A stretch of 62,261 nt of DNA, the filler included, from Sanchytrium tribonematis (taxonomy: Eukaryota), in NCBI GenBank assembly GCA_018985235.1. It is 8 parts of 8 records of this genome, joined end to end, with 100 filler letters (N's around TTAATTAATTAA, not from the genome) between each part and the next. Parts side by side here need not be neighbours in the genome. Positions count along the whole stretch, not along the records: positions 1 to 7,765 come from JADGIG010000418.1; positions 7,866 to 15,577 come from JADGIG010000419.1; positions 15,678 to 23,383 come from JADGIG010000420.1; positions 23,484 to 31,188 come from JADGIG010000421.1; positions 31,289 to 38,964 come from JADGIG010000422.1; positions 39,065 to 46,733 come from JADGIG010000423.1; positions 46,834 to 54,498 come from JADGIG010000424.1; positions 54,599 to 62,261 come from JADGIG010000425.1. One strand, written 5' to 3'. Both the position numbers and the translations under genes were made by a program. Shown here one piece after another: positions 3 through 57,054 of this stretch (position 1 is the stretch's first letter; every line of letters starts with the position of its first letter). The notes beneath the pieces were generated by a model. It worked only from the letters and a program-made list of their open reading frames with translations, did no database searches and was not told the origin of the DNA.

Positions 3-1149
3 AAACCGTCGAGTATACCTCCTTCTAATAATGGGCAGTATTACAGTGCGTTGGATCAAAATGATGATGAAAAATTGCTTTTAAGAACTATTATTAAAAT
101 TAAAAAAAATTCGAAATTCGAGCCTCCACTAGATTTAAATAGTAGACTATTAAATTTGCTATCACACCATAATATCAACATATTGCTGTCTTGTTTACAG
201 ATTCTAACATTTAACACCATATATACCGAAATTAATGCTGAGATCATATTTCCTTTCATTAATCACGAGGATTTTCGAATTCAAGAAGCGACTTGGAATA
301 TTATTTCCAATTTAATCTATTTTGAAGAGAGTCGTAGCGCATTTGATAAACTAAATCTTTTAGGCTCTATTGTAACTGTATTTACATTGCAAAGTGGGTC
401 ATTACAGTTGAGTGCTTTGAAGGCATTGGTCAACTACAGCTATTATTTTAAATTGAAATATGATATATTTTATATTTTGAATGAAAAGTTTATTTTATCG
501 GATGATGTCTCACTTAAACATTATGCATTGTTAATTTTATCCAATTTGCTTACATCAAAAGCGGTTTTGGATAAATTCGTTGATGTTAAATTTTTAGTCT
601 CATTAATTTCATTTTTAAAAAACACAGATCTAGCGGAATCAACTTTAAGATGCTTCATTTCAATATCAGCTGGTGGGAAAAAATATATTAAAATGATGGT
701 AGACAATAAAATTATAAGCGAGCTGGCGTCATTACAATATAGTTATAGGCAGCATGTCAATTCAATATTATTCAATATTGGATTGGAACCGGATTATAAT
801 TACGTCTTGGAACAATTTATTGACAAACTTACAAAAAATGATTTGGATCTTATGATTGTTTCAACTCTACAAAATAGTTATATTTCGAAAATTTATAAAA
901 TTTGCATACCAACATTTTGCAATAATTTGTTTAATTCTGATGTCATTGCTGCAATTAAAAATGTGTTTGATGCTGGTGAAATTGCTTCAGAAAGTAATTA
1001 AAACTTATTTAGAAAACTTGTATGTTCAAGAAGCTCAAAAATACCATATAGTTGAAAAACTTAAATTGAACGGGTCTTCTACTGCCTTGGATTTATTAGA
1101 ATTGTATTTTAGTGATTTAACCAAAGACTGGGTGATCATTAGTAAATAG
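3..1149 (+). CDS. ARM-repeat protein, divergent importin-alpha-like; 5'-partial; exons <3-993 and 1013-1149
   Basis: Frame open from the window start. Leu-rich helical repeats (e.g. QEATWNIISNL) and an EPPLD motif. Removing intron 994-1012 joins ORF 51..1001 to the 856..1149 frame, ending ...ALDLLELYF like importin-alpha C-termini. Confidence 0.6.
994..1012 (+). other. 19-nt spliceosomal intron
   Basis: gtaattaaaacttatttag; GT..AG, contains the in-frame stop, and its removal restores a continuous ORF. Confidence 0.8.
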
Positions 1150-1159
1150 CTTTATTAGA

Positions 1160-2038
1160 TTAGTCGCTAAGTTCTGAAATTGTAACATTCTTTTGAGTGG
1201 TGTCTTCATTTGATAAAGACTCAAGCCGAATATCATCGCCACTACTTGCTCTTAGGTTTCTTCGAAATTTGTTTCTAATATCAACACCATCCAAGTATTT
1301 TACAAATTTAACAATATAATACTTTGAGTCGCTGTCTACAGCAATAACAAACATGTAGTGCATCAAAAGACCAATCACCAAAGCACATAATACGTCTACT
1401 GTATAATGTAACCTAGATATAAGAACAAAAGTAATGGCGCAAATGCTCAACAACCACGACAAAATTCGAACTGTTAAAAATTTACAATAAAAATGGATCT
1501 GTATACATGCAGTTAGAACGGTGCTGGTGTGACCACTGAATATATTATCAGTGCAATTTGAGTGTGTTCCGGACATCAATTGGAGTAAACGAATAATGGC
1601 ATATTCATCTTTAATAATATCTGGTTTGCAATCCATTCCGAGTGGGCTTGGTACGGTCGTCATTACTATGAATATTCCTCTAGTAAAAAATAAAGTGCCT
1701 AATACAATTAAAGCGCGCCTGATAACGATTAGATTCCAGGGTGCGGGAATTGTAATCATAAATATTATACTCAACCAGAGCTCAGTCATTGTTAGTGCGT
1801 TTGCAACATACGCTAAATATTTGTAATTAGGAATGTTATTCAAAAATCTATCAAAAAGCGCATCTTGAGGTACATAATTATTTTCAGAAACAAAGAGCAT
1901 CGCAGCCCCAATAGTAAATGCTGCAAGCGCGTAAATAAAAGCTACACCGCTTCTTCTCCATTCGAGGCGTATTGGATGAAATTCATGGAAGGTGCTGAAG
2001 TTAAATCTTTTCCAATGCTTCATGATTTGTGCCCGCAT
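1160..2038 (-). CDS. Sphingomyelin synthase / IPC-synthase-like PAP2-family membrane enzyme
   Basis: Motifs TTVPSP, CTDNIFSGHT and SRLHYTVDV; about 6 TM helices. Confidence 0.85.
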   Translation of the reverse strand: MRAQIMKHWKRFNFSTFHEFHPIRLEWRRSGVAFIYALAAFTIGAAMLFVSENNYVPQDALFDRFLNNIPNYKYLAYVANALTMTELWLSIIFMITIPAPWNLIVIRRALIVLGTLFFTRGIFIVMTTVPSPLGMDCKPDIIKDEYAIIRLLQLMSGTHSNCTDNIFSGHTSTVLTACIQIHFYCKFLTVRILSWLLSICAITFVLISRLHYTVDVLCALVIGLLMHYMFVIAVDSDSKYYIVKFVKYLDGVDIRNKFRRNLRASSGDDIRLESLSNEDTTQKNVTISELSD

Positions 2039-2240
2039 CAAAAACGTGTTTCAGAATACAATTTATCTTTTAAATCAAGTAGACTCTGACTAAGCTACTC
2101 TTAGTAATTTGGTAGATTTATAATTAAAATCCCTAATTTTAAAGGGCAAAAAGCCGTAATATCTATAAATGTGGAGAACCAACTAGATTCCTCCAATCGC
2201 CGATCTAGTTCCTTTTTAGTCGAATGCGACCCGTCTCGCA

Positions 2241-3518: not shown

Positions 3519-3650
3519 AAGATTTCAAGGAGTGTTTATTTTAAAACTGGATAATTTCCGAACTAGTGTCATACTTCCAATTGCCTTGATTATCAACAAT
3601 ACGTTAGATTGGGTCTGCTAATCGAATTCTGAAAGTTGTGTGTAAGCCAC

Positions 3651-4781
3651 ATGGTTTCAATTGACTGTTTATCATTATATTATTTGGGAAAATCTTTGAA
3701 TTTGACCGCAGCATCCCAAAATATGATCCAGAATGGAGATTGCTGTTTTTTTACAGGCGTCACTTGTACATCGACCACAAATGGTCTTCGAATTAGTTCA
3801 ATCGTTTGGGACTACAAAGCAACCTCAAACTTTCAAGAAAATCTATCGGGCAATTTAAATATTACCGCAATGAAGTCGCTTGATTTTTTGCTCAGATTCA
3901 GCGCGTCTAATCAAAGGTTATCTGGTACTTTACCGCCATTTAAAAATATCTCAAATGTTCTAAATTTTTTTATTATCGACAACAATCAGATAAATGGCAC
4001 TATCAATGACTTAAACCAATTGTCCATTTTTAGTGCAAACTCCAACTATTTAGAAGGCTCCATACCAGCTTTTACGACGCGACTGGTTCAATTTTCGGCA
4101 AGTAATAATTTTCTCTCTGGTAAACTACCAACAATGGCTAAACCATTAGCAACGCTTAACATACACCACAATAATTTAGAAGGCACTTTTCCTCCCATAC
4201 CAAATAGCTTAAATATCATTATTGTGGATCACAATTCTTTTACTGGAAACATTAAGGTTGGCACCCCCATTCAGTTTTTGGTTCAAAATAACTTTTTTAC
4301 GTCTGTAGATATCATAGATTCTTCCTTGCTTACAAATTGTAATTTGTCGAGTAATTTTTTATCTACGAATGATGTTTTGATGCTCCCTGCCATTTGTGAG
4401 AAAAATGGAATGTTGACCACTACCAGTTTTATTGAAAATTTGCCATCTACAACTCTCGAAGATATCATATCTGTTGATTCGTTTTTTACTGCTCTTGAGA
4501 TCGAAACTTATGAATCGTCTTTTGAATTTTCAATGACTACCATTGAAGACTGGTCCTCTGAAGCAATTTTTACTGAGAGTACATCGATGCTTTTACCAGC
4601 AGAAATACCACCTCAAGAGGCAGAGTTGAGCAGCACTGATGTTTTGGTCGGGTTGGGTGTTATTTCAATTGTATTAATTATCGTATTGGCGTTGCTGTAT
4701 AATCATTCAAAAAAGAAAAGAGCAGAATTCAACAAGGTTTTGTTAGAGGTTGACGCGAAAAATCCTAACGGTTTTGTTTAA
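3651..4781 (+). CDS. LRR receptor-like surface protein (Cys N-cap, LRRs, S/T stalk, TM, short tail)
   Basis: SIDC...DCC..GVTC cap; LxxFxAxxNxLxGxxP repeats; CNLSSN..C cap; TM VLVGLGVISIVLIIVLALLY followed by KKKR. Confidence 0.85.
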   Translation: MVSIDCLSLYYLGKSLNLTAASQNMIQNGDCCFFTGVTCTSTTNGLRISSIVWDYKATSNFQENLSGNLNITAMKSLDFLLRFSASNQRLSGTLPPFKNISNVLNFFIIDNNQINGTINDLNQLSIFSANSNYLEGSIPAFTTRLVQFSASNNFLSGKLPTMAKPLATLNIHHNNLEGTFPPIPNSLNIIIVDHNSFTGNIKVGTPIQFLVQNNFFTSVDIIDSSLLTNCNLSSNFLSTNDVLMLPAICEKNGMLTTTSFIENLPSTTLEDIISVDSFFTALEIETYESSFEFSMTTIEDWSSEAIFTESTSMLLPAEIPPQEAELSSTDVLVGLGVISIVLIIVLALLYNHSKKKRAEFNKVLLEVDAKNPNGFV

Positions 4782-7865: not shown

Positions 7866-10800
7866 TGATTTAATCGCAATTGCTATTAAAAATGAGAAAT
7901 TTAAAAGATTTCAAATAATAGATATTGTGGAAAATAATGATTGCGGCAGCAGTGGAGGTGCCATTTTTGTGAAGACTAGCATCCGTAAAGATTGCACATT
8001 GATGCATTTCTAATTGACTTTGAATTTCATTAATTTTTGGGAGGAAAGGGGCGATTGTTTCCCCTTGTTGTCGTGGTTTCACTATTGTGCACTTTTCTTC
8101 TGAGATTGTGGAATTCAAGGCGAGTTTAAGGTGGCATTTGTACATGCCATTCACGAATTTGTGATTATTATTACAGTTTTGACATCGGATTTGAGATGGT
8201 GGCTTGTAATTTCTTTTTATAATTTGCTCTAAAGTCTTATTTTGATTTAATAATTTCATTACATTTCTATTCGGAGTGAAAGACATTCTTACTTTGGGTG
8301 AGTAATATAATGTATCAGGCTGGTTCATTTTAATACTCAACTTATTGTGAAATCTACTAATTAATTCTATCCATCTTTTTCCAAATGTATCGTAATGAAA
8401 TATAAATCTTAAATCATCATTTGGAAAGTAGCGAGGGAAAGAACACAGATTTCTGAGGGATCTGTTGATAAATGCATCAATCTTCTTGACTATTTTTGGA
8501 TCACATTCCATCAAACACAGACCATATTCGATACATGGTCTTATGAATGAGCCAAAAGCACGACTCAAATGCTCTATTTTGACAGAATTCCTGAATACTC
8601 CTCCATAGCGGAGATCTCTTAATTTCATTCTTGCCACTCTCAAATTCTTTTCAATTTGCTCTTCTAAAAATATTCCAAATTTGTTGATACGAAAACCCAA
8701 CCATGTCACAAATTTCACTTCGACAATGGTGGTTTTCTCCTCATTCAATCCTAAATTAATGCTTTCTAGAGCATCATTAATCTGAAACAAGACCTGCTGT
8801 GTCATTTCTTTGTGACACAAAACAAGCAAGTCATCAGCATACCATATTAAATGGGTATTTGGTAATTGGATATGTTTTGTATAGTGATAAACAACAGCCG
8901 TAAAGATCAAGGGCGAAAGGACTGAGCCTTGTAGGATACCCTGATTTATTTTTGATCTTTGCGAAATGTTGTTGCCAATTTTTAATTGAATTTGTTGCTG
9001 TGTGATTAGATTAAATATGATTATTTTAACTGGTTGGCTTAAACTAGATTCAAATAAATATTCACTGATTTTGGAATGGGAAAGTGAATCGAATGCTGAA
9101 GCAACATCGGCTTGAATTGTGTCATATTGATATATTTCGTCCCCCAATGATTCCACAATACTCATGTATTTATGCGCTGCATCCATTGTACTGGATTGTG
9201 GTTTATAAGCGTATTGATTGTCCCCAGATGGGCAACAATCCATCACTTCTTTTTTTAAAATAATTTCTAGCAATTTTTTCATTGCATTGGATAGGCATAT
9301 TGGTCTGTAAAACTTTAAATCATTATAAATTCTGGATTTATTCTTGTGAATTGGTCGTATAAAGTTGTCGTGGAATGAAATTGGAGTGATACCAGTAAAT
9401 ATAATCAAATTATAGAAACAGTGTAAAATGGGTCCCATTGTCTCTTCAGAATGGATGAGAAACTCATTGGGAGTGTTGTCTGGACCATATGATTTATTTT
9501 TGGGTAGTTTATTGAGAATGGATTTGAATGTCTCTATTGTGACATATTCGGTAATTGTGGTGCTTGTGGTTGGTTGTTCTTGGTAGAATAATGCTGTTTC
9601 AGAGCGGTCTAACAGCCATTTATCATCCCATTTGTTAATATGTGTATCCATTTCATGGATATCAAGTGTTTGCGACTTGATTTTCTTTCTATTTAAATTT
9701 ATTTTGGCGACTTTAATTATAAAATTGAACATCAGAGACGCCATTTCTCTTGATTCTTGGATGATTCTATCAGCTAGCTCTGATTGGTCAAGTAACAGTG
9801 CTTCCATGATTTCAGCAAGTTCTCTCAATTCGATTTTGGAATGTGATGTGGTGAAACCAATGTATTCCTCTCCTGCTCCAATGGATGATGCTTCAATTTA
9901 ACAATCATTTTACCCAATGTTGCATCTATTAATTGACATTTTCGAATAGCACATAATATAGCAAATAATTCATATTCTTCTAAATCCACATGATCCAATA
10001 AATATCTAAAGTATACTACAGGCCAATTTGAGAATTTGATTAATAATATTTCGTTCAATTTCTCCATTTTATCAAAATCAAATCTGTCATTTAAACCATA
10101 TTGAATCACATTTTTAATATCAAATCTATCAAAATATATATTTACAAGTTCTGTTGGTAGCCAGTCTCTTACTTTATCATTTAAGGGATGAAATCTATGA
10201 TAATCTGCAAATATATCCTCAAATGTATTTTTTTTGAGAAATGGTGTCTCTGATGTTCAATAATTGTTTCCAAGTCACAATCAAAGGTCTTATTATGTCT
10301 TTTAGAGTTACGCAATTTACATAATTCAATAAAGGCGCTTGTTTGATCTTCATTGACATTTTCCAAATATTTTTCAAACTCTTCTTTCTTCTCCTTTGAT
10401 CTTTGACGTTTGATTTCTTTATTAATAGAGTTTATCTGCTGTTTGATAATTATTTGTCTGTTACGAGTGATGTTTCTTTTTCGTAGTTTTCGTTTGAGCT
10501 TCTGCTTTCGGATGGCTAAAATCTGAATGATTTCATCACAATCTTTCATTTGATTTCTATCTAGTATGTTACACGTACCCAGGGCTATTTTAGCATGCTT
10601 TATACAAGTCTTTAGGATATAATCCCATTTTCTATTAATGGAAAATGCTTCAAATGCGTGACTTTTAGACTTGAAATCAGTCTCCAATTTTAATCGCAAC
10701 GCATTTAGTGCATATGGATCGTTTCTTAGTTTGCTCCAACGTATGGAACGTAGAATTGATATAGGTGTATCCAAGAAGTATTGGAATTTGATTGGAAAAT

Positions 10801-11640
10801 GATCAGAGTTTGTGCAATCATCTGTTAGTACTATAACGGGTCCTACACTACCAATTTTAGATTGATGAGCAATAACAATGTCATTTATATTAATTCCTCT
10901 TTTCATTGTACTTATAAAAGGTGTATTTCTACACGAGTAGGAATGGTCCGAAATCAATGCCTCAAATCCTCTTCCAATTCCATTAGAACCATTTTGTATT
11001 GATGGCATGTGCATGTTGGCGTCTCCAATGATGATACTTTTTAATGTAAATGCGTTGGTGAGCTCCGAATGAATGATAGAGAGAGAATGCATCATTCTAG
11101 GGGGAACATAGAGAAAGGAGAAAACATGTCCATCGATTTTAACATTATGGCAAAAGTTACTGTTTGAATTAATTTGACTTATATTATTGATGCCTGTTTT
11201 TATATATACACATTGACGATCAACTTCATGTGTAAACCGAAATTTGTATTGCGAATACCCTAACAAGCGGATATCTTTCTTTTCATTCATTCGATACTCT
11301 GTCAAATGCATTATATCAGGATTGTGATTGTCCACTAGCGATCTGAGCTCTGTTTCAAGGCTCCCATTTCGATTTCCACGGCAATTGTAGGAAATAATAT
11401 CAAAAGTATGAATTTGATCTGCCACGCTGTAGTCTGTCAGGATATCGCCATTACCACCTCTTATCCTGGCTTGAATTTCTATATTTGTTGTCCATTTATC
11501 TATAATAAATTCATCGGTAATCAATTTGGATCCATTTAGAATTTTGGATTCCATCCAGTTAATGTTTGATATTCTATTATTTATAAAGTTTCGGACATCT
11601 GTCAGTTTACAATGCTTGTGGTAATAAAAAGGGTGCAACT
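7866..11640 (-). mobile_element. Non-LTR retrotransposon LINE-A: Ubl - APE endonuclease - insert - RT - Zn knuckle - RNase H; three frameshifts; truncated at both ends
   Basis: APE motifs ISYNCRG, HLTE, YVPP, IIGDAN, SDHFPI. RT motifs KSYGPD, YRPICL, DVASAFDS, GILQGSVLSP, WYADD, WLG. CxxC...H...C knuckle and IFTDAS RNase H start. Frameshifts near 10232, 10135 and 9898 lie in homopolymers. Confidence 0.92.
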
Positions 11641-13424: not shown

Positions 13425-14594
13425 TCATCTATATATATCCTCAAATGTATTAGGAAGGTAGTCAATATGCTTTCTAGCTAAACCGAAATGCCCATAATCT
13501 CTAAATATATTCTCAATTGCCTTTATTTGTGCTTGTTTATTCATTGGTCTATCCATGAAAAATATCAATGCAAAATCTTTTAATAGTTGTGGTGTTTCTT
13601 TAAATCTGTAACTTGAAAATACTGCTTCAAATAATTCTATCATCAATTCTTAGTATACCCCATTTTGAGTCAATCTATCATCATAATATTGAAGCAAAAT
13701 AATTGCTTGTGCTGGAATACGGCGAATTTCGTAATATTCTAGAGTGGTTCTTTCTAATCTTTCTACTGAGACACCCTTCAAATCAGCCTCTAAATGAAGT
13801 CCTGAATAATACAATGCATTGACAATAGAACCTGGTTCTAAATTGACAATTTCCGCGTTATGGTAACCTTGTTTTACAAATTTTGATTTATACAAAACTT
13901 GTATACTTGCGTAATTTCTCAAATCTGACAATTTTTTGTATTGTGACTCGTAATTAAGTAAATTATTAGTATTTGGGACCGCTTTTAAATCCACATATCT
14001 ATTAGTAGAAATACCGACACGTTCTTCTCCAAATTCTGGTTGATTTTCCATTTCCATTATTTGGCTGGCAACCATGGTGGCACCAATTGCTGTCATACGT
14101 ATTCCAATTCTGCGAAACGGGCCAGTTATTCTACTGCGTGTATTGATAAGGCCTTGACCAAATCTGATCCATAAAGCGCCAGAATTGCGTGGTTCACGAA
14201 AAGATCTCAGCAAATCACTTTCGGAGAGAGGTCCTGTTTGTGATCCCATTGATCTTTTACAAAGTGGATTACCAGAATATTTCATTGCAATCTCAAATGC
14301 CTCTCTAGTCTCTGTAGAAATAGTCAATTTTGGAGGTTTAATTGATAAAATGTTGCGAGCAATCTGAATCCAATTAAATCCAGATGGTAAGCATTGTATT
14401 AATTGATTTGGATCGACCATGTAGAATTGATTCACACATTTAACAAAATTGGATTTCTTTTTCGGTGGCATATTCTGTAATTTTAGAGGCAATGATTTGG
14501 ATAATTGAAAGACATAATCTTTGACTTCCATTGAGGGAATTGATTTCTTTGCAAAAACAAACAAAATTACAAATAACATGGGGAAGGTACTCAT
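13425..14594 (-). CDS. Putative secreted protein (signal peptide, LCKR Kex2-like site) with an in-frame TAA at 13650-13652; possibly a pseudogene
   Basis: Hydrophobic N-terminus MLFVILFVFA; ORF 13425..13646 continues in the same frame after the stop. Confidence 0.5.
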
Positions 14595-14649
14595 TGTGAA
14601 TTTGGATACAAAAAGGAGAACATGTGGTCGTACAAATTGACAAATGGAT

Positions 14650-15577
14650 TCAAAATGAAGATTTACTCAATTTAGTGCCAGTACTATGTCGCTTCTTTGC
14701 TTTTTGTAGAAATTGCATCAATATTCTCAATAATAAACCAGAACTCAATACAAATTTAACCACTGCCAACCATCCAATATGGTACATGGGTGCTACATTG
14801 GGTGAGACACCTTGTAATTCCACTAAATAAGTCATTATTACATGTTTCTAATGTCGTAGTGACACCTGGAACTGATTTGATGGATTGTTTGGTTGTTTTG
14901 GAGAGGGACAAAGTTGTTTTGAGAGAAGTGACAATTTCTGGTCGTGTGACTATTTCAAATACGTGTGTAGATGATTCAATTGTGATGAATGTAGAATCTA
15001 ATTCAGTAGACTCAAGGAGAGTGGATTCTGGCTCAATAGAAGATTCTATTGTTGATTCTAATGTTTCTGTTGTTTCTGGCTCTGTAGTGGCTACATCAGT
15101 TGTTGCAGTAGTGATATCTGTAGTAGATTCACTGGTTAGTTCTGGAATCGTGGTAGTTTGTTGAACCGTAGTTGTTTTGACGATTGGGAGACTTTGAGCA
15201 TCAATGGCACATTTCCCCTTCAAACTCTGTAAAATAGTCACATTCATCCAATTATGAGATAAATCACAGCCTGTCAATACAGTAGTATCTAAAATACTGA
15301 CACCCAATAATTGGTTATACTGTACATACAATTTGATGGGTTTATCAACTGAAATAATGGATTCTAGCAAATTGTAGCTCACATTGAGTGTTTGAATCTG
15401 ACTAGGGACATGTCCAATAGATCCAGTCAATTGATTTGCACTCAAATCAACTATGGTTGCAGTATTTGGAAGTAGACTCAAATCCACTTGTCCATTCAAT
15501 TGCATTTTAGTAAAATTGACTAATTTGATGTGATTATCCACACAACTGACCACACTGCAGCAATCTACTTGCAATTG
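14650..15577 (-). CDS. LRR receptor-like protein, 5'-partial; intron 14823-14841 precedes the TM exon
   Basis: DCC..VSC cap, LRRs, CDLSHN..C cap, Thr-rich stalk; splicing adds TM WLAVVKFVLSSGLLLRILM and a basic tail. Confidence 0.85.
14823..14841 (-). other. 19-nt spliceosomal intron
   Basis: gtaataatgacttatttag; removal joins the stalk to the TM exon. Confidence 0.82.
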
Positions 15578-26224: not shown

Positions 26225-28886
26225 TTAAAATGCTAATTGAGGATATTGCTTGCTTGTTGTTTTCTTCTTTTGTCTCCCCAATCGATTTGCAAACAATGTC
26301 ATAATAAATAAACCATTCAAAGCTAATTTGACAATCATCTGCCATGTCCAGTTCAATTGAAATGGGCGCAATCCAAATTTTGTCAATGTGGTCCCTGCAA
26401 CATTCGACAATGTGATTGTACTGCTTGATGCAAATAAGTTATCAGTAGTTCCATTAAATGAAAGCAATGTGGTTCTTTTAAATGGAATACGTGTAATGAC
26501 TAAATAAATGCAAATTACTGGATGGGGCATCATTCTGCAATTCTGAGCTAAAGGCTGACCATTCTGCTGTGTTTGTTGGTACAGAGACAGTAAATTCTGC
26601 TGATTTTCTATTTGTCTCAACTATTGCAGTAGATTCCACACTTGTTTCTCTCACAAAACTTGTAAAACTAGTTGAAATAGTCGTGGAAATCAAACTACTC
26701 GATAAAACAATTTGCAATTGCAGTGGTTTTGGGGTCAAATAATACTTTTTGCACATGGTATAATTACCAATAAATGTGCTATTCAGTAATGGATTATAAG
26801 AAACATCACAATTTGTTAAATGTGTGGTATTTTTGATTTCAATGCTTGAAATATTTGTATTTCCTAAAATCAATGTTTTAGGATGATTTACGAGTAATTT
26901 ATCATTAAAAGTATTGCCCTCTCGTGCATTGTCACCCAATACAATTGTTTGTAATGAATCAGGGAATGTTGGTAATGGGCCAATGAAATAATTGCCTTGA
27001 ATTTGCAATTCTGTCAAATTGGGTGGCAATTGTGGTAAAACACCTTTGAGTCCGCAATACATCAATTCAACACTAGTGAGAGTGCTTGGTAACGAAGATA
27101 CATCTCCTTTCAAATCCAAATTGGTCATTTTTAATGTTTCTAATCCTTCTTCAAATAATGGTAATGTTCCACCAATATTGGTATTTCGAACTTCAAAATA
27201 TTTAATATGACCCGGAAGAGTAGGTGGCAACTTGGCAGTCTGATTAAATTTGAATGAAATTTTCAAAATTTGCAAAGAAGGAGGAATATCCTCCACTTCA
27301 AACACATATCCATTTACAGTGTTTAAAATCAATTGATCAAATTGATTTATATTTAAAGCTGTTACATTTTGATTGACACAAGTGACTGTGCCATATGGAT
27401 CATCACAGCAATTCTCCTCCACCAGAAACGGGGGAGATAAATTCATTTTATGAAACATTCTGAGGACATATTTGCATGAATCCAAATAAGAGGGTTCTGT
27501 ATACCACTGATATTGTGTTTTACAATTTGTGAAATTACCCATTTGATTTTGAGAAATCATATTATATGAAACATCACAAATTAATGCCGTTGTACCCGGT
27601 TTTGCCCATATTCTATCAATAAAATTGCTTCTAAATATAAAATAAATGGGTCTACTTGAATAAAAACCAGTCATATCGATAACACCTTTGATCTGATTAT
27701 ATGACAAATCAATAAATTCGATTTGACTTCCTTGTAACTCATTTTCAACAGCTGTAAATTGATTCTGACTGATTCTCAAGGTTTTTATGGATAAAATATT
27801 GGGAATAGTTCCATTTAGTCGATTTCTGTCAAGTTGAACTACGTTTAGATTGGGAGGCAATTTACCATAAATGGGTCCCGTTAATTGATTGTCATACAAT
27901 TGTAATGAATTTAGATTCACTAAATGGGATAAATCTGGAAAAGGCCCAGTGATCTGGTTCATTCTCAACTCTAAAATATTCAGGGTGTTTGGCAATAAAG
28001 TCCCATTTATAGTTCAATTCAAGTTTCGTTCATAAAATTGAATACTACTGATTCTATTTGATGAACAGCCATAAAAGACATCACAGCAATTTTGGCTATT
28101 TTCGATCTTATTGAAGAAATCCGGACTTGTTAAATGCATGTTTAATTGTTTTAAAAATTGAATCAAATTGGGACAATCTGGAGATGGAGTGGTTTTCAAT
28201 GAATAAGAACATCCATATGGTTGAAGGGCCAATAAATCATTATTATTTGAAATATCAAACTGGATATATCCAATATTGCAGGTCTTCAACTTTTGAGGAT
28301 TCAAAACAAATAAATTGTCAATTTTGTTGAAAGCGATGTTCAAACTGGTGATATTGGGAGATGCAATTGTTAAATTGCCAGTAATTTGATTTCCACGCAA
28401 TTGTAATTCTTTAATATGCTTAAAATCAAAGGAGATAGGGCCATATAAATGAGAAAACTGCAAATCCAAATATTCAATGGTATCTGGTAGATTTGGAAAC
28501 CGACGTGGTACATAATTGACATAGGAATACAATCCGCTATTGTACAATGTCTTCAAATTCATGGCATTTTTTGGATAAATATCATAAATATGACCATACA
28601 AATCAATATATTCCAAAGAATCTGGCAAAATGGGTAAATTGGGTGGATCTGTCTCGTCATATTCACCCAATATAAAGTATGTCAAATTGGGAAATGCATT
28701 TAGATTGAATCTAATGTAGTTTGCTTCTGTTAAATCCATAACTTTGAGAGAATCGGGTAATTTCGTAATCATCATGGATTTCGTGCTATATGCCAAGTCT
28801 AATACGCGTAAATTGGGTGGTAGAATGATATTGGGATGTGTTGCTTGCTTATAATCACTCGTAAATCCCCAATGGATCTCCGTCAC
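26225..28886 (-). pseudogene. Multi-module LRR receptor-like gene (copy B); 5'-truncated; in-frame TGA at 28014-28016; intron 26500-26518 precedes the TM exon
   Basis: NLN*TINGTLLPNTL versus paralog NLNGTINATLLPNTL; the spliced C-terminus gives TM WQMIVKLALNGLFIMTLFA plus RQKKK. Confidence 0.85.
26500..26518 (-). other. 19-nt spliceosomal intron
   Basis: gtaatttgcatttatttag; removal joins ORF 26478..27995 to the 26225..26620 frame. Confidence 0.82.
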
Positions 28887-34005: not shown

Positions 34006-35803
34006 ATGTCAGCGATAACTTGGAAGGATATTGAGTATTCGGTAAAAGCTAAGAAGCAGGAAAAGCAATTACTGTCGGGAATCAGCGGAGAATGTTTACC
34101 TGGAGAGATGGTTGCTATATTAGGCTCGTCTGGTGCAGGAAAATCCACATTGTTAAATGTCCTATGCGGTAGGGCCACGGGTAAAATCGACGGACAGGTC
34201 TTGGTCAATGGAAAAGTAAGAGATCCAAGTGAATGGTTAAAGATGACTTCATTTGTTGAACAAGATGATTTGTTCTTTGATCAAATTACAGTTAATGAGA
34301 GTATTCAATTTAGCGCCAATCTTAAATTACCACATCTAAGCTCTTCTGAGCGCAAAACAATTGTGACAGAAACAATTAACGAACTTGGTCTTATTAACGT
34401 CAAAGATAGCAAGATTGGAAATGCAGCAAAACGAGGAATATCTGGAGGAGAGAGAAAGAGATGTGCAATTGCTGTCGAACTAGTCACTGACCCAGACGTT
34501 CTTTTTCTAGATGAACCTACTAGTGGACTAGACAGTTTCATTGCTTATAATATTATAAAAACTTTAAAAGACTTGGCAGTTAGCAAAAAGAAAACCGTCA
34601 TTATGACTATTCATCAGCCAAGAGAAACAATAGTTCAACTTTTTGACAAAATAATGCTGCTGAGTCAAGGTAAAACGGTGTTTTACGGTAATCTTGAAGA
34701 AGGCTTGATCCATTTCGAGAAGAATGGTTATCCTTGTCCAGAAAATACAAACCCAGCCAACTTCTTTATTGATTTGATCACAATTGATTACAGAACTCCA
34801 GAGAAAGAGGTCGAAAGTACTAACAGAATTTTAAGACTCCAAGAGGCTTGGAAGACACCCGAATTGAGTTTTCCAAAGATTTCCGACGAAGAATATAAGA
34901 AATCATCAAAATCTAGAATGATGAAGTTCAATGCCTCCTGGCCATATGAAATGGCTTTATTACTTCAGAGAGACGGAAACAATATTTTTAGAAATCCAGC
35001 TACATTCGGAGCAACAATCGGTGGAGGGCTGGTTTCTTTAGTACTATTTAGTGTCATTTATTATGATTTCTCAGATTCTCCCGCGGGCATTCAAAATAGA
35101 AAAGGTCTCATATTCAATTTAGCATTAAATGCAATGTTTGGGTCTTTGAATTGTATCAATTATTTTCCAGCCGAAAAACCAATTATTAGAAAGGAAAGAA
35201 GTGCTGGTATGTACCGTGCCCCTTCTGCATATCTAAGCAAAGTATTAGCAAATTTTCCTTTAATTGTACTTCAAGTAGTTGTGTTGAGTCTTCCAATATA
35301 CTGGATCGTGGGATTTCGCCCGGATGCGGGTAGTTTTTTGCTGTTTTTATTGATCATTTTTGTGGAAACAATCACAGCTACATTCATGGTAAAATTTATT
35401 TATTTAGGGATTTATGATCGGTGCTTTGGTGCCTACTATCACAATTGGTCAAATTTTTGGACCACTTTTAGCTGTATTATTTATGGTTTTTGGAGGTTTG
35501 TTTGCGAATCTCGACTCTATCGGAAGTTGGATATCATGGATACAATATATTTCTTTGGTAGCAAACGCCAACAAGGCATTATCTCAAAATGAATTTTATG
35601 GTAGAAGTTTTAATTGCGCTTCAAAGACTCAAGGTAATCAATGCGTGCAACAAAGCGGTGAAGACATTGTAAAGTCGAGCTCACTGAATGACCCTAGCCT
35701 TGGAATTGTCACATTAGTCAATATTGGAATGATGGCAGCCTTTTGCATTATAGGAATGATTGGTTTTTATAAAACGACCAAACCCATCATCAAATTAAAA
35801 TAA
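34006..35803 (+). CDS. ABCG (White-type) half transporter; exons 34006-35388 and 35408-35803
   Basis: GSSGAGKS, ISGGERKR, LFLDEPTSGLD, TIHQP; the ABC2 membrane domain is completed by splicing (TFM|GFMIG). Confidence 0.95.
35389..35407 (+). other. 19-nt spliceosomal intron
   Basis: gtaaaatttatttatttag; phase 0; restores the ABCG membrane domain. Confidence 0.9.
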
Positions 35804-35855
35804 ATGCCAAAATATTTGGATATTTAATTTGAACTACTTTATTTGAAACATATCA

Positions 35856-36515: not shown

Positions 36516-36527
36516 ATCAATTTCAAT

Positions 36528-39359: not shown

Positions 39360-41637
39360 ATGCTAAGTCGACTTTTGAAAATTTCTCACAACACGATTCA
39401 TCAATTACTATACAATATAGGGAGTAAGAATGAAGCTGAATGGTATTTAAATCACTTTAGTAGTGCGGATCAATTTGCGGTCATTAAAGTTGGAGGAGGT
39501 GTTCTTGAGCAAAATATGGAAGAATTGTCGACTGCACTTGTGTTTTTGCAGAATGTTGGATTGTATCCTATTGTTGTACATGGAAGCGGTCCCCAAATGA
39601 ATGCAGAACTGGATCGGTTGCAGATCCCTAAAAAATATGAAGAAGGCATTCGAGTAACTGACAGTGACACCCTGAAAGTAGCCAAAAGATTATTTATAAA
39701 GCAAAATCTTAGACTTTGTGATGCAATCGAAAAACTTGGAGTGAGAACAAGGCCTTTCTATTGCGGAATTTTTGAGGCGGATTATTTGGATAAATCCAAG
39801 TATGGCTATGTTGGTAATATCACCAAAGTGAACAAAAAACTACTTAAGAGTGCAATATCTCATGGGGCATTACCAATTTTGACAAGTCTCGCAGAAACAT
39901 CTGATGGCCAATCCTTGAATATAAACGCAGACATTGCGGCGGTGGAGCTTGCGAAAGAATTGGAACCGTAATTTATTTTCACAAAGATTAAAGATTGTTT
40001 TCATAAACGAAACAGGTGGAATGTTTCACGACAAAAAGAAGATCAATGTTATAAATATGGATCAAGAATTTGACCAATATATGAAAATGGATTGGGTTAA
40101 ATATGGAACTAGGCTAAAACTGAAGCAATTTCATGAACTCCTTCACCACTTACCTCGTACAAGTAGTATCTCCATCACTAGTGCGACCCAATTACAAAGA
40201 GAACTTTTCACGCATAAAGGTGCTGGCACTTTAATTCGTAGAGGCTTTAAAATCCAAAAGCACGATATTGACAGTGTCAATATAGATCTACTTCGTCACC
40301 AGCTTAAAGATCATTATTTATTCAAAGACGTTAGTCTCACTCTATTTCTTGGCTCGCTTCACGACTGCGATATTTATTGCGATGAGGCATATGAGTGCAT
40401 AGTGATTGTCAAAAGGATGGACTACCCATTTATCGTTTTATTTCATGCACATAAATCTGCGCTTCTGAATGATGTGCACGAAATGATATTTGAGAATATT
40501 ATGAAAGATTACGAAAAATTTATGTGGGTGATACATCACGAAAATGTTGAAAAGCTTTGGCACTTTAAAAAAGCAACAGGCACGCTTAAGTCACAAGATG
40601 AAATAATATTGTGGAAAGGCAATAATTTGGAAAAAGTACAATCTCAATATGATTCTTATCGTAAAGTATTCCAGAGAGATGTTGGAAAGAGATTTTATTC
40701 AACTTTAAAATATTCCACAAAAAGACGGTATTCCCAAAAAATTAGTAATGTCGGGCTTATCGGTGCACGAGGGTACACTGGACAAGAGCTCATTAATATT
40801 ATTGCTAGGCATCCCAATTTGAAGCTAGAGTGTGTAAGCAGCAGAGAATTGAAAGGCAAAAAAGTTGAAAACACAGACGTGACATATTCTTTAATAGACC
40901 CAAAAGACATTAAGACATTTAAGGTAGATGCGTGGATATTAGCACTACCTAATTTATTAAGCACTAATTACGTAAAAGAAATAGAAACACCGGTAGTAGA
41001 TCTTAGTGCTGATCATAGATTCACCGACGACTGGGTATACGGATTGCCCGAACTCCATCGAAATAAAATTAAAAAACAGGCGAAAATTTCGAACCCTGGG
41101 TGTTATGCAACTGGTATGCAATTAGCTCTGGCCCCAATATTGACGAGAATTCACCCGAATCCTCACATTTTTGGTGTGAGTGGATATAGTGGTGCAGGAA
41201 CTACTAAAAGCAAGTATAACGATATAGACTTTTTGGACAAAAATATCGTACCGTATAAATTACAACAGCATATACACGAAAAGGAGGTTTCCCGGCATCT
41301 TATGCCGATCCAATTTACGCCGCATGTCTCTTATCATTTTAGGGGCATTGTTTTGACAATCCATGTTCATTTACATGGCAAATCTAGCAAGGAGCAATTA
41401 ATTAAAGCCTACAAAGATTTTTATATCAATGAACCATTGGTTAGAGTTATAGAGGAGATTCCAAATCTGAAGGATATCAAGAATCAACATCACGTAGAAA
41501 TTGGTGGATTTAGCGTCCACGATGACAGAGCGGTAATTGTTTGCACAATTGATAATTTACTAAAAGGAGCTGCAACACAATGCATTCAAAATCTTAACTT
41601 GGCTTTAGAATATCCAGAATTTGCAGGGATCATTTAG
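39360..41637 (+). CDS. ARG5,6: Acetylglutamate kinase / N-acetyl-gamma-glutamyl-phosphate reductase polyprotein; exons 39360-39967 and 39987-41637
   Basis: FAVIKVGG, VHGSGPQ, NINAD; spliced ELEP|LKIVFINE; Arg-rich KRFYS/RRYS processing linker; GLIGARGYTG, SNPGCYAT, DNLLKGAA. Confidence 0.96.
39968..39986 (+). other. 19-nt spliceosomal intron
   Basis: gtaatttattttcacaaag; removal restores the conserved EPLKIV motif. Confidence 0.92.
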
Positions 41638-42018: not shown

Positions 42019-43650
42019 ATGATTTTTTTGTTTTTGACGCGCCATGTAGCTCAAAGTGTATCTTGCTCGACTATTTTTGACGAGATAACAAGTTTTGATA
42101 ATCTTGACTACACCACATATACAACTTTAAGTGAAAAATGTGAAACATACAATGACATGGAAAATACTGCTACTTCGATCCTGTCTTGGTACGTTGAACC
42201 CACATCTTCCGCTGATTTTACAATGAGTACAATAGAATCAGAATCAGTTGAAACATTAGAAACAAGTCAGAATCTTGACACAACATTGGTTTACCAGGCG
42301 ACTCAAGAATCACATACCTCAGATCTCTCGTCTACTCAAAGCTTTGAAGTATCCACAACTCAACAATTAGAACAAAATTCTAATACACCGGATTTCTCTT
42401 TTACATCCGCAACTCTACAAGTATCTCAGGATTCGTTATCATCAGACATCGTGTCCTGGAGTAATTGGTTCACATCACAGTCTACGGAAATGACCACTAC
42501 TACAATCTCTAGTGATTATTCATCTCTGACTGATCAAGTTGCTCAACAAAGTACTTTTACAGAGCAGACTGATAGTTTTATAACTATAGTACAAAAGCAT
42601 TCAACAAATATATCAAGCATAATTTATCCTACCTCTTTGTCAACAGATGTCAAGCCATTATCAACTTCAAGTCTGTATTTGTTTACTGATACACCTTTAA
42701 CGGCGCTTGTGACTGATACAATCACCAATTCCCAAAAAATGTCCGATACAAGTACATTTTCAATAGGTCCTATAATATTGACTACAACATCATCAGACAC
42801 AGAAAGTCAGATAGAAGTAGATCTCACAACTTTACAATCAATTTTTGAACAGCAGTCCTCAGTTTCAATAAGCGCTTCACCAGCAACGACCAATTTCTAT
42901 ATTGCCAGTCAGAGTGTTGCAACATTGAAAACTTCAAGAAACACGTTTGAAGAAACTTCAACTTCTCAGTCTCTTGATCTAGCAAATGAGCTAGGGGTCT
43001 TGTCAACAAATCACATTTCGCAAATGAGTTCGTCTGTGGCATCAGAAACGACTCTTCCACTATCTTCAAACATACCTGGCCCTGATCCTGGAATTTTAAG
43101 TGCAATCAATTCGACCGGAGCGATTGCCGGACTTTCAGCTGGACTATTGTTTGCGCTATTGATTCTAATCATTTTATGCCTGAGATGTGGCCCAGGTAAG
43201 AAAATCAGTCGTCGCCTGCTGGATGAAGAAGTTCCGCAATCTTCGTTGAAAAGAAATGACAAAATATCAGAATCAGTGAAGTCAGAGCCAACAATAAACA
43301 CAAATAACGCACCTGTTCATTCAAGCCCACAACTTGAAGGTTTTAACACAGCCAATATACCTAAAACACCTATCCCAGAGTCTCCAGAAAGCCAACAAAA
43401 TGCAGCAATCATCCAAGGGCTTGGTGCTTCTACACTCTTCCGAAATAAAAATCGAAAAAAGTCTGAAGCCGTTGTACCTGGTCTAACGACACCAATTTCA
43501 GTAACACCAAATTCTCCAAGCAGAGTGACTCCTACAACTGGAAATAAAGTTTCTGGTGAAAAAGTAAATGTGGAAGCATTTCTAAATGTGGTCCGAGAAT
43601 TGGACAAAAAGGTATATGCTTCTAACTTAGATATCAGAAAAGAATATTAG
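42019..43650 (+). CDS. Ser/Thr-rich mucin-like single-pass membrane protein
   Basis: Signal-like start, long S/T-rich region, TM AIAGLSAGLLFALLILIILCL, cytoplasmic tail. Confidence 0.8.
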   Translation: MIFLFLTRHVAQSVSCSTIFDEITSFDNLDYTTYTTLSEKCETYNDMENTATSILSWYVEPTSSADFTMSTIESESVETLETSQNLDTTLVYQATQESHTSDLSSTQSFEVSTTQQLEQNSNTPDFSFTSATLQVSQDSLSSDIVSWSNWFTSQSTEMTTTTISSDYSSLTDQVAQQSTFTEQTDSFITIVQKHSTNISSIIYPTSLSTDVKPLSTSSLYLFTDTPLTALVTDTITNSQKMSDTSTFSIGPIILTTTSSDTESQIEVDLTTLQSIFEQQSSVSISASPATTNFYIASQSVATLKTSRNTFEETSTSQSLDLANELGVLSTNHISQMSSSVASETTLPLSSNIPGPDPGILSAINSTGAIAGLSAGLLFALLILIILCLRCGPGKKISRRLLDEEVPQSSLKRNDKISESVKSEPTINTNNAPVHSSPQLEGFNTANIPKTPIPESPESQQNAAIIQGLGASTLFRNKNRKKSEAVVPGLTTPISVTPNSPSRVTPTTGNKVSGEKVNVEAFLNVVRELDKKVYASNLDIRKEY

Positions 43651-51555: not shown

Positions 51556-52438
51556 TTATTGACCCACTTCCCCTTCTTGCATTTGAGCAGCCAATCCCTC
51601 TAATTTACTCAATTTCTCAGTTCTATATTGTTCATACAATATTTCTTGAGTAATTTCTTTTAAATCTGTCATGTGTGAACTCAATAATGCATATTTTAAT
51701 CGGACAAAATCAGTATGCTCCAAATTATCAATATGGACTGTTCCCCATGCATATTCACGCTTATTATCAATAGAGGATGTCACAGCAAATGGCAATAGGT
51801 CCTAAATGAGTCTAATATACCCGCAATTCCTTGTTTTCACCCACGGTATCTTCATCATCTTGGTGATGGTCATATGGGAAATTGAAAATGGGAATATCAA
51901 AATATTCAATATCTGCAATACATCTTTTTTTTAATACAACCATTTCTTCATTGGTTAATGAATCACTTTTCGCAATCACTGGAATAATGTTAATGCGATG
52001 TCCTAATAATTTCATAAATTGGATATCCATTTCATGCAATCCATGGCCTGGTGATATGAAATATAAGCATACATGGACTCGATTATCTACGAATTTCGGA
52101 TTTCTCTTGATTCTAGACTCTTCTGCCAAGAAATCATCATATTGTTTTTCAATAAATTGAATCACAGTCTCAAATTGAGAGGTATTGTCAATGGCATCAC
52201 CATATCCAGGTGTATCAATCACACTTAGGGATATTTTAAGACCATCTTCTTCAATTTCAGTGTGATAGGGGATGATTTCCATGGTGGGTTGTAATTGGTG
52301 ATTTCTATCGATGCAGTGGGCACCTAATGAATTAACAAATGTAGATTTACCTAATCCGGATCTACCTGCTACGATCATGTTGAATTGGAATACTTTACGG
52401 GCATTTCTACGAGATCGTAAATCAGCAGTCGTGGCCAT
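51556..52438 (-). CDS. Septin; exons 52438-51821 and 51801-51556
   Basis: GRSGLGKST, DTPGYGD, DNRVHVCLYFI, IAKSD; spliced ELR|DLLPFAV; REYAWG, HTDF. Confidence 0.96.
51802..51820 (-). other. 19-nt spliceosomal intron
   Basis: gtatattagactcatttag; removal restores the septin LPFAV motif. Confidence 0.92.
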
Positions 52439-54498: not shown

Positions 54499-54598
54499 NN
54501 NNNNNNNNNNNNNNNNNNNNNNNNNNNNNNNNNNNNNNNNNNTTAATTAATTAANNNNNNNNNNNNNNNNNNNNNNNNNNNNNNNNNNNNNNNNNNNN
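54499..54598. other. Artificial contig spacer
   Basis: 100-nt N/TTAATTAATTAA linker. Confidence 0.98.
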
Positions 54599-54839
54599 GA
54601 ATTATTGGATGTCGAATAGCACAGCCATATTTATATCTTACGAATGATGGATGGTGCTTGAGGGTTGTGATGGGTGTAGCATAGACTAATCCGGATGCGG
54701 ATCTGTTGCGTGGACCATTGATTTTTGATACTTTATGAAAATCAGTCATTTCTTGAATAATATTTTCTTGAATGGCTCGATTGTCCTCTTTCGTTGGTAC
54801 TCGAGTCTTAGCACTTTGAGCTGTCATCCCAAGGGGCAT
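54599..54839 (-). CDS. 5' end of a hypothetical protein (runs into the gap)
   Basis: ATG at 54839; frame open to the contig edge. Confidence 0.4.
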
Positions 54840-55052
54840 CCAAAATTAAAAATATTTTTTGTTACAGTCACATGACAAGATTGGAACGAATGAAGCACGG
54901 TCAAATCCGATGGGCAGACAAATGATTTAATATGAATAATATTGAATAAAAAATGGATTCAAGTTCATAAATTGACATGCAGACATCGTCAAAATATTCA
55001 ACATGTGCTTCAAAGCATGTCTCACTTGGGTAGGCCAAAAGTTTCAAGTAAA

Positions 55053-57054
55053 ATGAAATCAAAATGTATTTTGTTATTTTATTTCTTACTAATCACGCTT
55101 ATATCTGGGTATTACACTGTTTCACCAGATTGTCCGACCATGATGAACTTTCTAAGAGGTTTGAATGTACATATAACAGAGCCTCAATTATTTGATAGTG
55201 TTCCAGAAGGATGCTGCAATTATTTATCCGGAAATGGATTTGGATACTTTAGAATCAGTTGTACACAAATCGGGGCAACCTGGTACGCTACTTCGTTAGA
55301 AATTGAAAAAATCAATCTGACTGGAGAAATTAAAAGTCAATATCTGCCATCGACGATGCGCTCTATTTATATCCAGAGTACGACATTAAACTGTGAAATA
55401 CCATCAGATCTACCAAATGGTATTCAGACTCTACAAATGGCTTTTAATCGATTAAAAGGTAAGATTCCTGACACACTCCCTTCTCAATTAATTCAATTAG
55501 ATTTGAGTTTTAATTTGCTGAGTGGTGCACCTGTTTCTCTACCAGAATCACTCACTTCAATTTATCTGCCAAACAACCGATTGACCAAAATGCCACCATT
55601 TCCGCCCAATCTTCAAAAAATGGATATTTCTGAAAATCTGATTTTTGACAAATTTCCAGATTCATTTTCATCAAGTATGACTCAACTATATGCAAATGGC
55701 AATCGTATTTATGGCTCAATTCCAAATCTGCCAGCAGTGTTGATGTACTTGTATCTTGATAATAACCAATTAAATGGCACTTTTCCAAATTTACCAAATT
55801 CTATTCAATCTTTTCAAATTTCCTTCAACAAATTAACAGGCAGTGCTCCACAAACATGGCCATCTAGTCTAACCTATCTAGATATTTCACACAATTTATT
55901 AACTGGAAGTTTACAGAATGTCGACACCACTTTCGCTTCAAGTCTTTCTTTTTCTTGGAATTTATTCACTGGAAATTTACCCAATTTCAAACAAAATAGC
56001 TACACAAGTGTAGATTTATCAAATAATCTACTTACTGGGGATGTTGATTTGGGTAATATAAGCATCTCTAACTTATATTTAAATTCAAACCCATTTAAAA
56101 AATTTCCTAAATCTTTGCCACAAAATATTGTTGTGTTGTATATGGGTAATATTCAATTGGGCGGCAACATTTCATCATATTTGATACCAAATACAGTTCA
56201 TTCCTTGGATTTATCCAGTAATTATTTAACAGGACAACTTCCAAGTTGGCAAAATCTTAATGATTTGAATGTTTCCAACAATTTATTGACTGGAAGTATT
56301 CCAAAATCACTGGGAACTGTCTATAATTTGGATCTGTCATATAATCAATTAAGTGGTTGTGTAAATTACACATTTACTGGAGCAATCGTAATCTTAAACG
56401 ATAACTTCTTAAGTGGCAATTTGACTTGTACGAGTCCCACAGTGTTGAACTTGCAGAATAATCTTTTAAATGATGTGACAATTCGAAGCGGCTCTCCTCT
56501 ACTGATTTGTGATTTGAGCAACAATCCAATGGCACCCGGAGTGTTTGGTAAAACATTCAAAAGCATTTGTAAAATCAATGATATTTATTCTAGCAACAGT
56601 ACTGATTGCGGTATAGTCCCATTCATTGCCAATTACACTAGGCAATTACCGATTAAAACGTCCAATCCCACGACTATCAAATTGACCACAGACTCTTTAA
56701 AGAGCACCAATACAATCACAAATGCATCCCAAGTAGCTGATGCACCTGTAGATGCTACTCAAATGACTCGTAATTCTATTTCATTTAGGCCCTAATCGCA
56801 TTTCTGTTGCAAATAATCCCCAAATGGATTCCACTTTATTTGCTTCTCAAATCATTTCCACCAAACAGCCCATTTCTACCAATATTTCACTTGCAAATAA
56901 TCATGAATGGCCATTACAGGCATTCAAAGTGGATTGGTCACTATCAATCACTCTCAGATTGTGTTTTAATGCCATGTTGAGTGGCATTATTGCTTCCAAA
57001 ACACCGTGGCGGATCCAAATGAAAAGAACAGCAGTGAGTGAATATACTGCTTAA
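55053..57054 (+). CDS. Apparently intact LRR receptor-like protein; exons 55053-56769 and 56789-57054
   Basis: Signal MKSKCILLFYFLLITLISG; SPDC...CC cap; many plant-type LxxLDLSxNxLTGxxP repeats; CDLSNNP cap; stalk; WSLSITLRLCFNAMLSGII anchor. Confidence 0.9.
56770..56788 (+). other. 19-nt spliceosomal intron
   Basis: gtaattctatttcatttag; joins ORF ..56795 to the 56824..57054 frame. Confidence 0.82.

Follow-up and report, generated by a model that had tools for sequence, protein, structure and literature searches.

Nineteen-nucleotide inserts, probably spliceosomal introns, in genes of a sanchytrid fungus

Seven 19-nucleotide inserts and their shared signals

The DNA analyzed here, called the window, is a 62-kb stretch of Sanchytrium tribonematis sequence in eight contig pieces joined by N44-TTAATTAATTAA-N44 spacers. 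Its host is a sanchytrid, falling in a septin tree in a 100/100 clade with Amoeboradix gromovi, with Allomyces adjoining at 91/99; Blastocladiomycota are the sister group of the sanchytrids. The host is a parasite of algae. An earlier note on this DNA had described seven 19-nt GT-AG segments on seven contigs, and all seven are present in place (minus-strand coordinates being low ends), spread over seven of the eight pieces and amounting to 7 per 38 kb of ORFs, or ~0.2 per kb (Table 1). All three phases are represented; three of the seven are phase-1 inserts in LRR genes that resemble one another, and thus there may be as few as five independent loci.

Table 1. Putative introns in the window and their standing among alternatives at each locus
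Position	Strand	Feature	Gene	Standing
994..1012	+	19-nt putative intron, phase 1	armadillo-repeat-like gene (ORF <3-1149)	top score of 19 frame-joining GT-AG stretches
14823..14841	-	19-nt putative intron, phase 1	LRR + Ser/Thr-stalk gene	best of 33 joins
26500..26518	-	19-nt putative intron, phase 1	LRR + stalk gene (28898-26225)	best of 55 joins
35389..35407	+	19-nt putative intron, phase 0	ABCG half-transporter (34006-35803)	best of 80 edits
39968..39986	+	19-nt putative intron, phase 2	ARG5,6 (39360-41637)	best of 63 frame edits
43612..43630	+	candidate eighth 19-nt intron		score 14.0; CTAAC canonical branch site, A at position 14
51802..51820	-	19-nt putative intron, phase 0, in-frame TAG inside	septin Cdc11 (52438-51556)	best of 3 stop-free edits
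56770..56788	+	19-nt putative intron, phase 1	LRR + stalk gene (ORF 54936-57054)	best of 3 joins

The signals reported in the earlier note hold in all seven inserts: each starts with GTA, carries Y-T-Y-A at positions 11-14 and ends in AG (TAG in six, AAG in one), with the A of that motif, the presumptive branch nucleotide, at -6, followed by 3 nt and then AG without a pyrimidine tract. The invariant inner columns are A3, T12 (T at -8) and A14; this invariance was reached in 37 of 200,000 within-intron shuffles of the seven, and in about 2% of shuffles when only one of the three LRR introns was kept. The fungal branch site is usually CTRAY, from which the pyrimidine found at position 13, just before the branch A, departs in 7/7. 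In a partly circular test, a search pattern derived from the seven matched 11 stretches of 19 nt, where 2.6 would be expected; at the other lengths between 12 and 44 nt it matched 0-7 each. When the motif was instead trained on the ARG5,6, ABCG and septin inserts, the other four ranked 1 (the insert at 56770), 4, 8 and 10 among 8295 GT-AG stretches. A length-blind scan of 162 frame-extending GT-AG stretches (12-60 nt) placed the seven, with motif scores of 15.2-17.7, in seven of the top eight places, the remaining one being an alternative donor to one of the seven acceptors.

Other stretches were scored in the same window. The candidate at 43612, absent from the earlier note, lies close to where a gene for a Ser/Thr-rich membrane protein ends; its removal would replace a tail of 12 residues by one of 21. 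Two stretches of other lengths, one at 13790 (23 nt) and one at 33786 (26 nt), score on par with the seven, and neither improves the frame; the first is doubtful as an intron because excision would truncate its ORF, the second because the joined frame has no upstream start. ORF 13650-14666 gave no significant PDB match, and no tiny GT-AG solution was found for the kinase/Sel1 junction near 60300-60380. The earlier note had cautioned that introns of 3n length would escape a search by frame breaks. This is answered in part: across 40 ORFs there are 15 in-frame 3n candidates of 15-30 nt, none of them credible, as the best (21 nt at 47830) is coding according to a paralogue alignment and the others score ≤9.2.

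Restored proteins and the same breaks in relatives

Three conserved proteins are exactly restored by removal of 19 nt, as the earlier note had proposed, and in all three homology-testable cases this is the best repair; the other four are best at their own loci by motif only. Scored with homologue profiles, the removal reaches 1057.8 against 1045.8 bits in ARG5,6, and for the ABCG half-transporter, where Pfam ABC2_membrane is broken at ~position 150 between the two ABCG ORFs, 730.9 bits against 720.8 for the top 1-nt deletion. With the insert at 994 removed, the frame of the armadillo-repeat-like gene runs on for 45 residues instead of 2. Exon 1 of this gene has a weak ARM match; no homologue scored among 3084 candidates, and exon 2 has no PDB match. 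In the LRR genes the inserts lie before hydrophobic segments. The one at 14823 precedes a hydrophobic segment and a basic tail (tail hydropathy 1.85 spliced, 0.26 retained), the spliced tail at 26500 contains a hydrophobic segment and can be aligned, weakly, to the tail at 56770 (21%), and a hydrophobic segment also lies downstream of the insert at 56770.

Introns in relatives were decoded from read-through protein tails by back-translation. The septins of three relatives depart from homology at the same codon as the Cdc11 of the window, and their tails decode uniquely to 19 nt (A. gromovi P0124), 19 nt (P0123) and 20 nt (P0122). In both 19-nt septin tails position 14 has to be A under any back-translation, since it falls in an Asn codon; A14 is thus fixed in two of the four decoded introns and compatible in the other two. 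The fourth comes from ABCG: relative P0225 (75% identical) shows no interruption at the exact 35389 junction, and carries a 19-nt phase-1 break of its own, 22 codons further downstream. Because relatives imply the same septin intron as well as a separate 19-nt ABCG intron, the trait appears to be lineage-wide, which supports the claim of tiny GT-AG introns in a fungus, with the A fixed at -6, and extends it to the clade. A scan of metagenomes with ARG5,6 returned 80 loci, all at ≤49% identity, and no close relative.

These comparisons speak against the view that errors of assembly or amplification, or lesions of pseudogenes, have broken the frames and that the GT-AG ends arose by chance, a view that we regard as highly improbable. 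In ARG5,6 and ABCG every single-base repair falls 10-12 bits short of the 19-nt removal, and the same septin break is seen in four genomes. A DNA contig from run X1 also covers the ABCG insert without a gap, although X1 may be the source of the window itself and so not independent; against 31245-38964 this run shows scattered substitutions, one 8-nt deletion and no joint. On the other side, true lesions do occur in LRR genes of the window, namely an in-frame TGA at 28014-28016 in the gene 28898-26225 and, near 25740, what looks like a 1-nt frameshift, a break for which no tiny GT-AG solution was found. Of the four introns whose boundaries are placed by motif and not by homology, three belong to LRR genes that resemble one another, and one of those genes is the one with the in-frame stop.

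Another reading is that the inserts are not old introns that have shrunk but stem from a 19-nt intron-making element that has spread recently. The ARG5,6 site is uninterrupted in relatives P0001 and P0002, and since the ARG5,6 and ABCG positions vary between close relatives, gain is possible. However, the septin site is common to four sanchytrid genomes and apparently also to the more distant ORF P0164, as a Val-Ser read-through in one record suggests; moreover, positions 4-10 are unlike in all seven inserts, which therefore do not show the near-identical sequences that mark introner-derived introns. Recent spread is therefore very unlikely.

The earlier note held that the introns are locked at 19 nt, and all seven are indeed of this length, but a lock at exactly 19 nt is an overstatement, since the septin intron of one relative comes out at 20 nt. 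It is unlikely that the introns are real but broadly spread in length, or accompanied by a second, longer class, with 19 nt being the mode of a small and partly redundant sample. Of the 11 introns found or decoded, ten (among them three of the four decoded) measure 19 nt and one measures 20 nt, no better-scoring longer intron was found at any of the seven loci in searches up to 80-150 nt, and there is the lack of credible 3n candidates; in favor of wider variation are the 20-nt relative, the possibly five independent loci, the minor long class that E. cuniculi has beside its ~25-nt introns, and the size of a 62-kb sample, in which a class of longer introns could be missed.

Splicing machinery and comparison with other very short introns

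Taken together, the inserts are best explained as probable U2-type spliceosomal introns, genuine ones whose size has come down throughout the lineage to a narrow ~19-20 bases, splicing being deduced here from genomic sequence. The published A. gromovi annotation includes U1-70K, Prp40, SF1/BBP, U2AF1/2, SF3B1, Prp8, Prp5, Prp22, Brr2, Isy1, Cwc22 and Cwc25, so that by this annotation the lineage has a spliceosome; U1-70K is also among the few S. tribonematis annotation rows. The modified spliceosome proposed in the earlier note is conjectural. A. gromovi retains most core splicing factors, SF3B1, both U2AF subunits, SF1/BBP, U1-70K and Prp8 among them, and at annotation level it does not show the loss of most proteins, including U1 parts, that marks a reduced spliceosome. 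Slu7, Prp18, Prp28, U1C and Yju2 gave no match in this annotation, which covers about half of the proteins; Rfam gave no matches in the window, and no snRNA there.

Removal or bypass by other means, such as cutting of the Ire1/tRNA-ligase type or ribosomal hopping, is barely credible given the GT-AG ends, the fixed U2-type branch motif, the use of three phases and the annotated spliceosome of A. gromovi. A 14-nt lariat loop would be sterically tight, and a like concern has been raised over Stentor and nucleomorph introns; introns of 15-21 nt elsewhere are nevertheless accepted as spliceosomal.

In the spliceosomal mechanism proposed here, the GTA donor would be read by U1 and then U6, and U2 would pair with positions 11-15 with A14 bulged, giving the 14-nt lariat loop. 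The first AG would serve as acceptor, at 5 nt from the branch too close to leave space for a pyrimidine tract. In yeast Slu7 is unneeded when the branch-to-3' distance is ≤9 nt (PMC10158995), or <7 nt (PMC3392075); at such a distance splicing could do without Slu7 and Prp18, which act in the second step, and the lineage may have lost them. The length would reflect a deletion bias working against a minimal distance from donor to branch, a proposal already made for Mikrocytos.

Very short introns as a kind are already known. The earlier note named heterotrich ciliates and chlorarachniophyte nucleomorphs as parallels and omitted the closest cases, namely the 16-17-nt introns of Mikrocytos, those of myxozoans (median 22-27 nt) and those of microsporidia (22-76 nt). 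The heterotrich ciliate Stentor coeruleus has 15-16-nt introns with the branch A at position 10 of 15 or 11 of 16, and shares with the sanchytrid introns a start in GUA, an end in AG, a branch region rich in U, the A at -6 and a constrained length (PMC9505925); unlike the sanchytrid fungus, with ~0.2 introns per kb and a predicted 14-nt loop, it is a free-living ciliate with thousands of introns and a 10-11-nt loop. Mikrocytos mackini is likewise a reduced parasite with few introns (224) of conserved sequence, in which one length dominates beside a class 1 nt longer (217 and 7 introns) (PMC10245619). However, it is a rhizarian with a spliceosome reduced to 17-19 proteins and with intron-free metabolic and transporter genes (PMC10245619), whereas the sanchytrid of the window has its putative introns in ARG5,6 and ABCG too and A. 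gromovi keeps many splicing factors. Chlorarachniophyte nucleomorphs are alike in size range (18-21 nt) and GT-AG ends, but these relic endosymbiont nuclei hold ~900 introns in 283 genes with no discernible branch A (PMC6009652), unlike this sanchytrid, which is poor in introns and has its A fixed at -6. Microsporidia, parasites related to fungi, also have a small number of short GT-AG introns whose motifs are strict, though their introns are longer (~25 nt; 22-76 nt in E. cuniculi) and they form a lineage separate from sanchytrids (PMC3629993, PMC6349667). Myxobolid myxozoans and Dicyema also have a donor cut to GTa, an absent or very short pyrimidine tract and a retained U2AF; they are animals with a wider length spread, in which A residues shift away from the AG in longer introns (PMC13644364).

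Meaning for sanchytrid biology

No report of sanchytrid introns was found in a literature search conducted mostly without subscription journals, and the 19-base introns are likely shorter than any fungal intron found reported. Near-minimal introns would have an apparently independent origin in a fungal phylum, below the microsporidian lower bound of 22 nt, and a size like that in nucleomorphs, combined with a branch position that is visible and resembles that of Stentor, makes them useful for asking what sets minimum intron length. A broader proposal, possible but rather doubtful, is that throughout the phylum Sanchytriomycota the spliceosome keeps U1/SF1/U2AF recognition, works with one geometry (14-nt loop, AG 5 nt beyond the branch) and no longer includes Slu7 and Prp18, that these introns are the shortest in Fungi, and that retention of the LRR-gene intron before the membrane anchor could switch the protein between anchored and secreted forms. 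Both published sanchytrid proteomes were produced with TransDecoder on genomic contigs with no intron model, and database entries end early at these introns (septin at 208 and 222 residues, ARG5,6 at 203); what has been concluded on the gene content of the phylum may thus call for re-annotation in which the minimum intron length is set at ≤15 nt.

Seven inserts of 19 nt and their host genes

All seven 19-nt inserts described in the earlier note were located, each on its own piece of the window (eight pieces, each ~7.7 kb; GC 33.8%), and the signals claimed for them, a GTA start, Y-T-Y-A at positions 11-14 and a terminal AG, are common to 7/7. Three inner columns are invariant, a number reached by 37 of 200000 shuffles of the seven; when five loci only are counted, ~2% of shuffles reach the same. 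Intron density in the window ORFs is ~0.2 per kb.

Features of the window (intron entries by first position)
Position	Strand	Feature	Remarks
994	+	19-nt insert	ARM-like gene
14823	-	19-nt insert	LRR gene
26500	-	19-nt insert	LRR gene
35389	+	19-nt insert	ABCG gene
39968	+	19-nt insert	ARG5,6 gene
51802	-	19-nt insert	septin Cdc11 gene
56770	+	19-nt insert	LRR gene
43612-43630	+	candidate eighth intron	19 nt GT-AG, perfect CTAAC, A at position 14
3633-4781		fourth LRR gene	frame runs intronless through to anchor
28014-28016	-	in-frame TGA	in LRR gene bearing the 26500 intron
~25740	-	apparent 1-nt frameshift	in tandem LRR partner of the gene with the TGA
7870-13356, 17126-19977, 20635-22893, 30060-31232		mobile-element-like ORFs	fill much of pieces 2-4
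13650-14666	-	314-residue protein	
36528-39008	-	826-residue open frame	built from repeated segments
59171-60875	+	kinase ORF	overlaps Sel1-repeat ORF in different frame

Removal of the 19 nt, said to restore ARG5,6, septin and ABCG, is the top-scoring edit in all three. With a profile built from all 120 ARG5,6 homologues listed, removal scores 1057.8 bits vs 1045.8 for the top single-base deletion; the 63 edits compared each restore the frame, by deletion of 1-3 nt or by removal of a GT/GC-AG stretch <80 nt. For ABCG (profile of 21/150 matches, chosen by a length of 560-800 residues) it tops 80 edits, at 730.9 vs 720.8 bits, and for septin Cdc11 (profile of 43 homologues) it tops the 3 stop-free edits. 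Read directly, the ARG5,6 junction carries no interruption in the homologues P0001 and P0002 from close relatives, nor does the ABCG junction in the 75% identical homologue P0225.

A weight matrix trained on these three introns alone and applied to 8295 GT-AG stretches of 15-45 nt ranks the insert at 56770 first, 26500 fourth, 994 eighth and 14823 tenth, a ranking that is not fully blind because the original choice of these four may rest partly on likeness to the other three. Among 162 reading-frame-extending stretches of 12-60 nt the seven take 7 of the top 8 places, and each is the top join at its own locus, up to 150 nt. A homologue search with the ARM-like gene detected none. The LRR genes at 14823, 26500 and 56770 have a Ser/Thr stalk and a phase-1 intron, with a hydrophobic segment and basic tail present if it is spliced and absent if it is retained; because the intron separates the stalk from the predicted membrane anchor, a protein made with it retained would lack the anchor. 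Their tails align weakly (15-21%), and the three genes are therefore likely paralogues, with no shared intron position implied. The TGA and the apparent frameshift in the tandem LRR pair are ordinary lesions, pseudogenes or assembly errors and not introns.

Probable introns in relatives and phylogenetic placement

Intron-blind ORF calls read through introns, and the resulting protein tails thus encode the intron followed by the shifted exon. In septin, homology is lost at one identical codon in all three relatives (Amoeboradix gromovi and the homologues P0123 and P0122), and when insert lengths of 4-45 were tried exon 2 is recovered in each protein by one length alone: 19 nt in A. gromovi (score 41, next 8), 19 nt in P0123 (57, next 4) and 20 nt in P0122 (121, next 15). 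In the first two, an Asn codon requires position 14 to be A. P0225 has a separate ABCG break 22 codons past the window's site, which decodes as a phase-1 insert of 19 nt (55-63 vs <=23). With relatives' lengths inferred from protein rather than read in DNA, the proposed lock at 19 nt holds in 10 of 11 introns and is broken by the P0122 septin; on the same reading, intron positions turn over among relatives. In P0164, a more distant ORF, homology is also lost at the septin site, with Val-Ser, the reading expected from a GTRAGT donor; this single record hints that the septin intron is old and has since shrunk.

The window septin ORF, truncated at the intron, is present in EukProt itself, and its nearest named relative is A. 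gromovi EP00835 (80%). In a Cdc11 tree of 24 rows, hand-picked from 104 matches, the window, two ENA proteins and A. gromovi form a clade (100/100) with Allomyces adjoining (91/99), a topology consistent with the published placement of Sanchytriomycota as the sister group of Blastocladiomycota (PMC8371127). Two sanchytrid genomes have been described, that of S. tribonematis with a GC of 34.6% (PMC8371127), and on that basis the window probably derives from S. tribonematis. P0001, P0002, P0122, P0123 and P0225 are ENA metagenome proteins 75-83% identical to those of the window, and suggest that public assemblies contain two or more additional genomes of uncultured sanchytrids. Between window positions 31245-38964 and DNA contigs of sequencing run X1 there are ~90 single-position differences and, near 33896, an 8-nt deletion, which suggests that two alleles or strains are present.

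Further candidates and other features

The earlier note cautioned that introns of 3n length would be missed. A scan of 40 ORFs (38067 nt; GTA..T(-8)..A(-6)..AG, in-frame, 15-30 nt) gave 15 such candidates, 14 of which score <=9.2 vs 15.2-17.7 for the seven; the top one, of 21 nt (14.1), is coding by paralogue alignment. Stretches of 23 and 26 nt, both scoring 16.1, bring no frame improvement when removed. A plausible eighth intron, absent from the original list, lies towards the end of a gene for a Ser/Thr-rich membrane protein (43612-43630), with branch spacing as in the seven. No tiny-intron solution was found for the kinase/Sel1 overlap, which represents two genes or a frameshifted fusion.

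The mobile-element ORFs, labelled by eye, are reverse-transcriptase-like with endonuclease-like partners, or integrase-like; a DDE transposase ORF among them matches Pfam DDE_3. The repeats of the 826-residue frame resemble globins by eye. The 314-residue protein, probably secreted, has no match in Pfam and no significant match in PDB; the spacing of its Ser-Thr and Glu motifs may be reminiscent of ADP-ribosyltransferases.

Proposed branch geometry, spliceosome and known short introns

In the proposed mechanism A14 would serve as the branch nucleotide, giving a lariat loop of 14 nt and an acceptor AG 5 nt past A14, used without a pyrimidine tract. It is established that U2 pairs with the branch region, bulging the A, and that Slu7 is dispensable where the branch-to-3' distance is <=9 nt (PMC10158995, PMC3392075). 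The spliceosome was inventoried in the eggNOG table of A. gromovi (supplement file 4 of PMC8371127), where the losses of SF3b, U2AF and SF1 that had been proposed for checking are not borne out: SF3B1, both U2AF subunits and BBP are annotated, together with Prp8, U1-70K, Prp40, Prp5, Prp22, Brr2, Isy1, Cwc22, Cwc25 and Upf1. Slu7, Prp18, Prp28, U1C and Yju2 were not matched by identifier or name, a weak absence because annotation reaches only about half of the proteins. A wholesale reduction of the spliceosome finds no support in this annotation; second-step factors may have been lost.

Introns measure 15-16 nt in Stentor, with A at -6 (PMC9505925), 16-17 nt in Mikrocytos (PMC10245619), 18-21 nt in nucleomorphs (PMC6009652), a median of 22-27 nt in myxozoans (PMC13644364) and 22-76 nt in E. 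cuniculi (PMC3629993, PMC6349667). The window inserts share A at -6 with Stentor (7/7), unlike nucleomorph introns, in which no branch A is visible. No class this short is named in the consulted passages of a survey covering 644 fungal genomes (PMC8476143). The sanchytrid genome paper, whose proteins were predicted with TransDecoder on contigs, confines 'intron' to a reference title (PMC8371127), and the sanchytrid TPPP paper mentions introns in a reference only (PMC10459994). Our literature search found sanchytrid introns unreported, although subscription journals and some supplements could contain a report. With splicing inferred from sequence, these introns would represent a known ultra-short-intron kind in a real and apparently undescribed fungal case.
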